Source of the DNA: Escherichia coli
Lineage (GTDB): Bacteria > Pseudomonadota > Gammaproteobacteria > Enterobacterales > Enterobacteriaceae
Reading direction: 5' to 3' (one strand)
NCBI RefSeq assembly: GCF_003018255.1
Contig: NZ_CP027440.1
Length of the DNA stretch: 64,000 nt
The position numbers were made by a program, and so were the translations under genes. Shown piece by piece: positions 26,550 to 28,172 of the stretch; position 1 is the first letter of the stretch; each line of letters opens with the position of its first letter. The notes beneath the pieces are model-generated. The model was not told the DNA's origin and searched no databases. It saw only the letters and a program-made list of their open reading frames with translations.

Positions 26550-28172
26550 ATGAATACTCTCCCTGAACATTCATGTGACGTGTTGATTATCGGTAGCGGC
26601 GCAGCTGGACTTTCACTGGCGCTACGCCTGGCTGACCAGCATCAGGTCATCGTTCTAAGTAAAGGCCCGGTAACGGAAGGTTCAACATTTTATGCCCAGG
26701 GCGGTATAGCCGCCGTGTTTGATGAGACTGACAGCATTGACTCGCATGTGGAAGACACATTGATTGCCGGGGCTGGTATTTGCGATCGTCATGCAGTTGA
26801 ATTTGTCGCCAGCAATGCACGATCCTGTGTGCAATGGCTAATCGACCAGGGGGTGTTGTTTGATACCCACATTCAACCGAATGGTGCAGAAAGCTACCAT
26901 CTGACCCGTGAAGGTGGACATAGTCACCGTCGAATTCTTCATGCCGCCGACGCCACCGGTAGAGAAGTAGAAACCACGCTGGTGAGCAAGGCGCTGAACC
27001 ATCCGAATATTCGCGTGCTGGAGCGCAGCAACGCGGTTGATCTGATTGTTTCTGACAAAATTGGCCTGCCGGGCACGCGACGGGTTGTTGGCGCGTGGGT
27101 ATGGAACCGAAATAAAGAAACGGTGGAAACCTGCCACGCAAAAGCAGTGGTACTGGCAACCGGCGGTGCGTCGAAGGTTTATCAGTACACCACCAATCCG
27201 GATATTTCTTCTGGCGATGGCATTGCTATGGCGTGGCGCGCAGGCTGCCGGGTTGCCAATCTCGAATTTAATCAGTTCCACCCTACCGCACTGTATCACC
27301 CACAGGCACGCAATTTCCTGTTAACAGAAGCACTGCGCGGCGAAGGCGCTTATCTCAAGCGCCCGGATGGTACGCGTTTTATGCCCGATTTTGATGATCG
27401 CGGCGAACTGGCCCCGCGCGATATTGTCGCCCGCGCTATTGACCATGAAATGAAACGCCTCGGCGCGGATTGTATGTTCCTCGACATCAGCCATAAGCCC
27501 GCCGATTTTATTCGCCAGCATTTCCCGATGATTTATGAAAAATTGCTCGGGCTGGGGATTGATCTCACACAAGAACCAGTACCGATTGTGCCTGCTGCAC
27601 ACTATACCTGCGGTGGTGTGATGGTGGATGATCATGGGCGTACGGACGTCGAGGGTTTGTATGCCATTGGCGAAGTGAGTTATACCGGCTTACACGGCGC
27701 TAACCGCATGGCCTCTAACTCCTTGCTGGAGTGTCTGGTCTATGGCTGGTCGGCGGCAGAAGATATCACCAGATGTATGCCTTATGCCCACGGCGTCAGT
27801 ACGTTACCGCCGTGGGATGAAAGCCGCGTTGAGAACCCTGATGAACGGGTGGTGATTCAACATAACTGGCACGAGCTACGTCTGTTTATGTGGGATTACG
27901 TCGGCATTGTGCGCACAACGAAGCGCCTGGAACGCGCCCTGCGGCGGATAACCATGCTCCAGCAAGAAATAGACGAATATTACGCCCATTTCCGCGTCTC
28001 AAATAATTTGCTGGAGCTGCGTAATCTGGTACAGGTTGCCGAGTTGATTGTTCGCTGTGCAATGATGCGTAAAGAGAGTCGGGGGTTGCATTTCACGCTG
28101 GATTATCCGGAACTGCTCACCCATTCCGGTCCGTCGATCCTTTCCCCCGGCAATCATTACATAAACAGATAA
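26550..28172 (+). CDS. nadB: L-aspartate oxidase
   Basis: 540-aa flavoprotein with N-terminal FAD fingerprint [15 protein letters not shown]. Confidence 0.95.

Follow-up and report, generated by a model that had tools for sequence, protein, structure and literature searches.

Escherichia coli nadB and trmN (also named yfiC) face each other on the chromosome, and their coding sequences share 16 bp at the 3' ends. An overlap of this kind raises the question of whether it is kept as a regulatory device, in which transcription of one gene represses the partner, or is simply a result of dense gene packing. A sequence-only reading of the 64,000-nucleotide stretch of DNA analysed here (hereafter, the window) had noted this pair together with two other tail-to-tail overlaps, mltF/tadA and yfiM/kgtP, and had taken such overlaps to imply antisense interference at the transcript ends.

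The three convergent overlaps are real, ordinary and already known, and nothing in them is new in kind. Very probably, the overlaps in this region are by-products of compact bacterial gene packing and not a regulatory device.

Gene models and convergent overlaps

The window is a segment of the E. coli chromosome and the counterpart of 2.68–2.75 Mb in strain MG1655. Over its whole length it is 99.6% identical to NZ_CP116067.1, with indels only in the rrn operon and at a few intergenic spots. RefSeq gene coordinates were transferred to the window, and every gene was checked for its start and stop codons, its reading frame and any internal stops. By this mapping, nadB (L-aspartate oxidase, 540 aa) occupies 26550–28172 on the plus strand and trmN (tRNA1Val m6A37 methyltransferase, 245 aa; a 738-bp gene) occupies 28157–28894 on the minus strand. 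In the other two pairs, mltF (11930–13486, plus) faces tadA (13483–13986, minus), and yfiM (40080–40403, plus) faces kgtP (40400–41698, minus); the stops and frames of these genes were checked in the same manner.

All three convergent overlaps are exact at the positions first proposed for them, with stops and frames verified: 16 bp for nadB/trmN (28157–28172, TTACATAAACAGATAA), 4 bp for mltF/tadA (13483–13486, TTAA, in which the two stop codons share TA) and 4 bp for yfiM/kgtP (40400–40403, CTAA). Each is a pair of real coding genes on opposite strands that share 3' bases, as convergent overlapping gene pairs are defined.

Might the overlaps stem from miscalled gene ends or from spurious genes? 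Two of the same-strand overlaps proposed earlier did prove to be artefacts of that sort, arising from a longest-ORF choice of start (see below). The convergent overlaps, however, depend on stop codons alone, and the calls are thus unambiguous. Moreover, Pfam domains are found in all six proteins of the three pairs, the genes of MG1655 (NC_000913.3) stand in the same order and overlap in the same three convergent pairs, and MG1655 and PGAP-annotated genomes give identical gene ends. A 3-kb query around the nadB/trmN junction, covering nadB, trmN and srmB, finds a match in 5425 of the 5426 complete E. coli genomes, and the junction is present once per genome in 5418 of these 5426; beyond the species, the overlap is kept in most of the relatives compared (see below). 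An origin in annotation is refuted for the three convergent pairs, and its probability is close to nil.

Class and frequency of the overlaps

On the opposite strand, TAA and TAG appear as TTA and CTA, which allows two facing stop codons to have a central TA in common. [quoted passage not shown] TTAA at 13483–13486 and CTAA at 40400–40403 both obey this rule. The two 4-bp overlaps are ordinary instances of facing stops that share the central TA, which is the modal convergent overlap in prokaryotes.

The E. coli genome contains 58 convergent overlaps (Lillo and Krakauer, 2007; PMC2174442). Since 1218 of the 1890 convergent overlaps in a set of 58 genomes are of at least 5 nt (PMC2174442), the 16-bp length of the nadB/trmN overlap is unremarkable. 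In the window, three of 11 convergent pairs overlap. This excess is not significant: 0.9–1.7 overlapping pairs are expected among 11, with P(≥3) = 0.06–0.24, if the whole genome is assumed to contain 370–700 convergent pairs, where 370 is the count of convergent operons in Conway et al. (2014) and the upper values are our own estimate.

The pairs resemble the convergent overlaps of Lillo and Krakauer (2007) and of PairWise Neighbours in several respects: two of the four canonical tetramers occur here, an origin by run-on to the next stop fits nadB, and dozens of such pairs exist in E. coli, mostly without intrinsic terminators, which are predicted for just 20% of genes in convergent overlaps (PMC2174442). 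Nothing substantive separates the present pairs from that class; the added detail is that the Phe-Tyr codons of TrmN fix the position of the 16-bp overlap family-wide.

Coding constraint on the nadB/trmN overlap

A search for TrmN in one genome per species gave 80 loci from more than 20 genera of Enterobacteriaceae, in 78 of which both gene ends could be located. Of these 78 species, 75 have a 16-bp overlap, two have one of 8 bp and a single species has one of 12 bp; nadB/trmN thereby shows the conservation in orthologues that is looked for in convergent pairs. The stop codons themselves differ between species, trmN ending in TAA, TGA or TAG and nadB in TAA or TAG. In the three loci with short overlaps (L008 and L035, 8 bp; L037, 12 bp), nadB has an earlier stop or a shifted frame and the end of trmN is unaltered, which is consistent with a labile NadB tail.

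The two proteins differ in how their C-termini are kept. TrmN ends in FYLFM in 75 of 76 sequences and in FYIFM in the remaining one. The C-terminal tail of NadB is diverse among species (e.g., GNHYINR, LSHHINR, LVHINK, LAYMNK and LAHIKR), and the final NadB Pfam domain stops at residue 521 of 540. Counts for each alignment column show that the third codon positions of nadB and trmN face each other in the overlap. Variation within it is found only at the shared third positions (28157, 28163, 28166, 28169 and 28172), at 28158, the second base of the trmN stop codon, and at 28168, where a change in the first base of a Leu codon of trmN is synonymous. The 12 bases immediately upstream, which belong to nadB only, vary at all three codon positions.

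Read on the opposite strand, the nadB stop codon (28170–28172) consists of the final base of the Phe codon of TrmN followed by the first two bases of the Tyr codon (TTY|TAY giving TAR). As long as Phe-Tyr is kept at that position of TrmN, a stop, TAA or TAG, is therefore imposed in the nadB frame. The nadB frame would extend to the first in-frame stop that it meets, and this stop would be held in place by purifying selection on trmN. In addition, the last residues of NadB ([H/Y][I/M][N/K][R/K]) would be dictated by trmN, with the NadB tail itself unconstrained and following trmN. Such an overlap is cheap because the third codon positions of both genes are opposed.

As a counterpoint, the persistence of the 16-bp overlap throughout the family could mean that the overlap itself is under selection. 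The coding constraint predicted for the FYLFM codons of TrmN is nonetheless a full explanation of this conservation, one in which no selection for the overlap needs to operate.

Transcript ends at the convergent junctions

A full-length nadB mRNA must include position 28172, which lies 16 nt inside trmN; complementary 3' ends are therefore obligatory. Termination before the opposing gene, which had been offered as the observation to refute interference, is impossible for full-length mRNAs because the coding sequences overlap. As no space is left between the genes for a terminator, each mRNA would end inside the opposing gene. The ends would be formed mostly by Rho-dependent termination followed by exonuclease trimming to the nearest hairpin, leaving transcripts whose 3' ends are complementary over some tens to a few hundred nucleotides.

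Published Term-seq and bicyclomycin (BCM) data show such ends inside the opposing gene for the kgtP and tadA strands. On the kgtP strand, 3' ends were mapped at MG1655 2724397 and 2724366 (Adams et al., 2021; PMC7815308); these correspond to 40349 and 40318 on the minus strand of the window (51 and 82 nt beyond the stop of kgtP) and were classed as antisense to yfiM. On the tadA strand (minus), a region of Rho-dependent termination has its peak at about 13193 (MG1655 2697064; Rho score 9.6; PMC7815308, supplementary file 2), which by coordinate conversion lies roughly 290 nt beyond the stop of tadA, in antisense orientation within mltF, at the low resolution of a method that compares 800-nt windows (PMC7815308). 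Within MG1655 2711600–2712799, the tables of Adams et al. contain neither 3' ends nor Rho-dependent regions for nadB/yfiC (PMC7815308), and the available part of the SMRT-Cappable-seq supplements makes no mention of this pair. For nadB and trmN, we infer from the gene arrangement that the mRNAs likewise end in the opposing gene.

Read-in of this sort is widespread among convergent genes. Rho-dependent regions are found antisense to hmp, yphH, srmB, yfiE, ung, yfiF and shoB (PMC7815308, supplement), and the convergent neighbours in the window that do not overlap (hmp/glnB, srmB/yfiE, ung/yfiF and yphH/glyA) thus have the same Rho-limited antisense read-in. Genome-wide, 276 of 370 convergent operons of E. 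coli (75%) have overlapping 3' ends, with a mean overlap of 286 nt (Conway et al., 2014). As non-overlapping convergent neighbours and these operons read in likewise, overlap of the coding sequences is not the cause of the antisense overlap. The present pairs share with dnaQ-rnh, ilvA-ilvY and the convergent operons of Conway et al. (2014) the feature that transcripts enter the facing gene and end there, often by means of Rho. Unlike in those cases, the coding sequences overlap here, so that a minimal transcript overlap is obligatory and does not depend on leaky termination.

Two local features bear on transcription around these junctions. Between pssA and yfiM, a good hairpin with a T-run, resembling an intrinsic terminator, is present at 40041–40061 on the plus strand; this putative terminator suggests that yfiM is transcribed separately or by read-through only, and it matters for how frequently transcripts of yfiM and of kgtP are present together. 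The convergent spacer of srmB/yfiE (30361–30392) is 32 bp in the window and 208 bp in MG1655, where an extra element of about 176 bp is present; in published bicyclomycin data, Rho-dependent read-in occurs at this junction on both strands (PMC7815308).

Terminators, collisions and interference

Consensus scans of the three convergent junctions gave 1–2 weak intrinsic-terminator sites per approximately 1 kb, which equals the expectation from shuffled sequences, and a scan of the whole window with Rfam at gathering thresholds placed no known RNA family at the junctions. A perfect 10-bp hairpin (GCAUUCUCCC...GGGAGAAUGC) lies at 28247–28273 on the plus strand, inside trmN and 75 nt past the nadB stop. 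This hairpin is stable in E. coli, carries no U-tract and is built from the trmN codons for AFSP and GEC. It was considered as a conserved terminator or 3'-end element of nadB and rejected: across 76 species, its positions are paired in 60.3% of cases, compared with 60.2% in shuffles.

A hairpin so placed brings to mind the collision-driven bidirectional terminators described by Ju, Wang, Liu and colleagues, in which a stem-loop at the boundary positions head-on collisions of RNA polymerases and both transcripts end at the junction. Ju, Wang and colleagues report that such terminators are widespread between convergent genes of E. coli and independent of Rho and of U-tracts, and hairpins also stand immediately upstream of the kgtP 3' ends. 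The nadB-side hairpin, however, is Escherichia-specific; beyond its shuffle-level pairing, it has no covariation across 76 Enterobacteriaceae and a consensus energy of −1.1 kcal/mol. In the 191-nt regions downstream of the nadB and trmN stops, overall folding is no stronger than in shuffled sequences (z = 0.14 and 1.28), the tadA-side end is Rho-dependent, and the sharp 3' ends on both strands that characterize such terminators, together with the boundary stem-loop, are not seen at nadB/trmN, which is without mapped ends in the tables of Adams et al. Collision-driven termination at these junctions is accordingly very unlikely.

Another possibility is that the pairs are functional convergent excludons, whose overlaps are kept so that transcription of one gene represses the partner through head-on polymerase collision or through RNase III cleavage of the 3' duplex; for example, NadR-controlled nadB might lower trmN. 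In keeping with the concept of Sesto et al., the pairs consist of opposite-strand neighbours whose mRNAs overlap at the 3' ends, as is evident from the logic of the coding sequences, from the kgtP and tadA-strand ends and from ExcludonFinder, whose Table 1 includes all three pairs (NAR 2025; PMC12288877); they belong to the 165 convergent excludons that were present in at least 50% of 58 MG1655 transcriptomes (PMC12288877). Compared with other pairs of neighbours, excludon pairs taken together have higher synteny and are less co-expressed in single cells (PMC12288877), a result that would leave room for some selection on the arrangement. The preservation of the 16-bp overlap across Enterobacteriaceae and the lack of a terminator between the genes of the pairs are also in line with such a function. 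Excludons are, however, defined by mutually exclusive expression, whereas these pairs qualify through RNA-seq coverage: ExcludonFinder scores the overlap of coverage-defined transcript boundaries (PMC12288877), so that any expressed pair with overlapping coding sequences is included by construction, and the listing is not a functional test. Capture of double-stranded RNA with p19 could not validate convergent pairs (PMC12288877), and in an E. coli dsRNA immunoprecipitation study, according to a review, 3' regions made up just 0.5% of duplexes. Furthermore, the constraint on TrmN FYLFM accounts for the conservation, non-overlapping neighbours show equal read-in, the sole local hairpin is neither conserved nor covarying, and the functions of the partners are unrelated: NAD synthesis is paired with tRNA methylation, a murein transglycosylase with a tRNA deaminase, and a lipoprotein with an alpha-ketoglutarate permease. 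Maintenance of the overlaps for repression of the partner is hence unlikely.

For nadB/trmN, the specific form of this idea is that relief of NadR repression under NAD limitation leads to unterminated nadB transcription antisense through trmN, and so to less TrmN. If this were true, NAD status would be linked to the m6A37 modification of tRNA1Val, and conservation of the overlap would partly reflect selection on that coupling; we regard such a working excludon as highly improbable. What had been claimed of antisense interference is thus to be divided. Complementary 3' ends hold good, by the logic of the coding sequences, by ExcludonFinder and by Term-seq. For functional, regulatory interference, no evidence was found at any of the three convergent pairs.

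Any effect on expression would be small if the overlaps are packing by-products, given that convergent read-in is normal in E. coli with or without overlap of coding sequences and that the partners are unrelated. The partners are assumed to be weakly transcribed, as is typical of such genes, and polymerase collisions and duplex formation would then be rare.

Same-strand junctions

The sequence-only reading also listed five same-strand overlaps of 4 bp as signs of translational coupling. Three of them stand, all with the sequence ATGA and all on the minus strand: the rnc stop and era start (19513–19516), the rseB stop and rseC start (23928–23931), and the rluD stop and the start of yfiH, which is also named pgeF (50914–50917). 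Another ATGA overlap, between the rseD stop and rpoE start (26139–26142, minus), had been missed, as had overlaps of 11 bp between the qseG stop and glrR start (4923–4933, minus) and between yfiR and dgcN (59707–59717, plus), and overlaps of 1 bp between acpS and pdxJ (17128) and between rseA and rseB (24884).

The remaining two junctions, recO/pdxJ and rpoE/rseA, are spacers. At recO/pdxJ (17871–17874, minus), ATGA is present, but its ATG, which overlies the stop of recO, is an upstream codon in frame with pdxJ. The accepted start of pdxJ is at 17859, 15 nt (five codons) downstream of that ATG, leaving an 11-nt spacer to recO; this start comes with a GAGGA Shine-Dalgarno sequence, and chain 1m5w in the PDB starts with MAELLL. 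At rpoE/rseA (25567–25570, minus), a TTG at 25570 on the rpoE stop had been adopted from the longest open reading frame. The accepted rseA start is at 25534, 36 nt downstream of the TTG, and RseA in PDB 1or7 starts with MQKEQL; the spacer is 32 nt. Both false overlaps result from taking the longest open reading frame as the gene, and this manner of start calling manufactures spurious ATGA and TTGA overlaps.

The stop/start overlap expected of coupled ATGA junctions is thus found at rnc/era, rseB/rseC, rluD/yfiH and rseD/rpoE, and is missing at recO/pdxJ and rpoE/rseA. The four junctions are standard stop/start overlaps within known operons, compatible with translational coupling, and they are like the coupled ATGA overlaps of operons, such as rnc-era. 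The two rejected junctions differ from that class by their 11- and 32-nt spacers. Coupling at the ATGA junctions is a reasonable textbook expectation, predicted here from sequence alone.

Other features of the window

On the plus strand at 23136–23967, opposite all of rseC and the 5' end of lepA, Rfam gives a match of 512 bits to AsrC, which had gone unremarked in the earlier reading. AsrC is an antisense RNA of the rseC mRNA and was described in Salmonella. Other Rfam matches are GlmY (7323–7470, minus), the rncO leader (20139–20353, minus), OhsC, the antitoxin to shoB (16650–16727, plus), RyfD, adjoining clpB (50037–50175, minus), and the Phe leader (54922–55047, plus). The rrnG operon occupies 42024–47039.

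An IS4 copy is located between bamD and raiA (52870–54217, plus), with its transposase in two open reading frames (52870–53193 and 53147–54217); the matching IS4 copy in a near-identical strain is marked as frameshifted by RefSeq. At 63632–63647, between rpsP and ffh, the window differs from NZ_CP116067.1 by an indel of about 112 bp.

Implications

The overlaps of this region are textbook E. coli gene packing, and complementary 3' ends have already been catalogued genome-wide, with these exact pairs included. For the Enterobacteriaceae, nadB/trmN provides a worked example of how the conserved C-terminal codons of one gene may pin the stop codon of the facing gene throughout a family, with no need for regulation.
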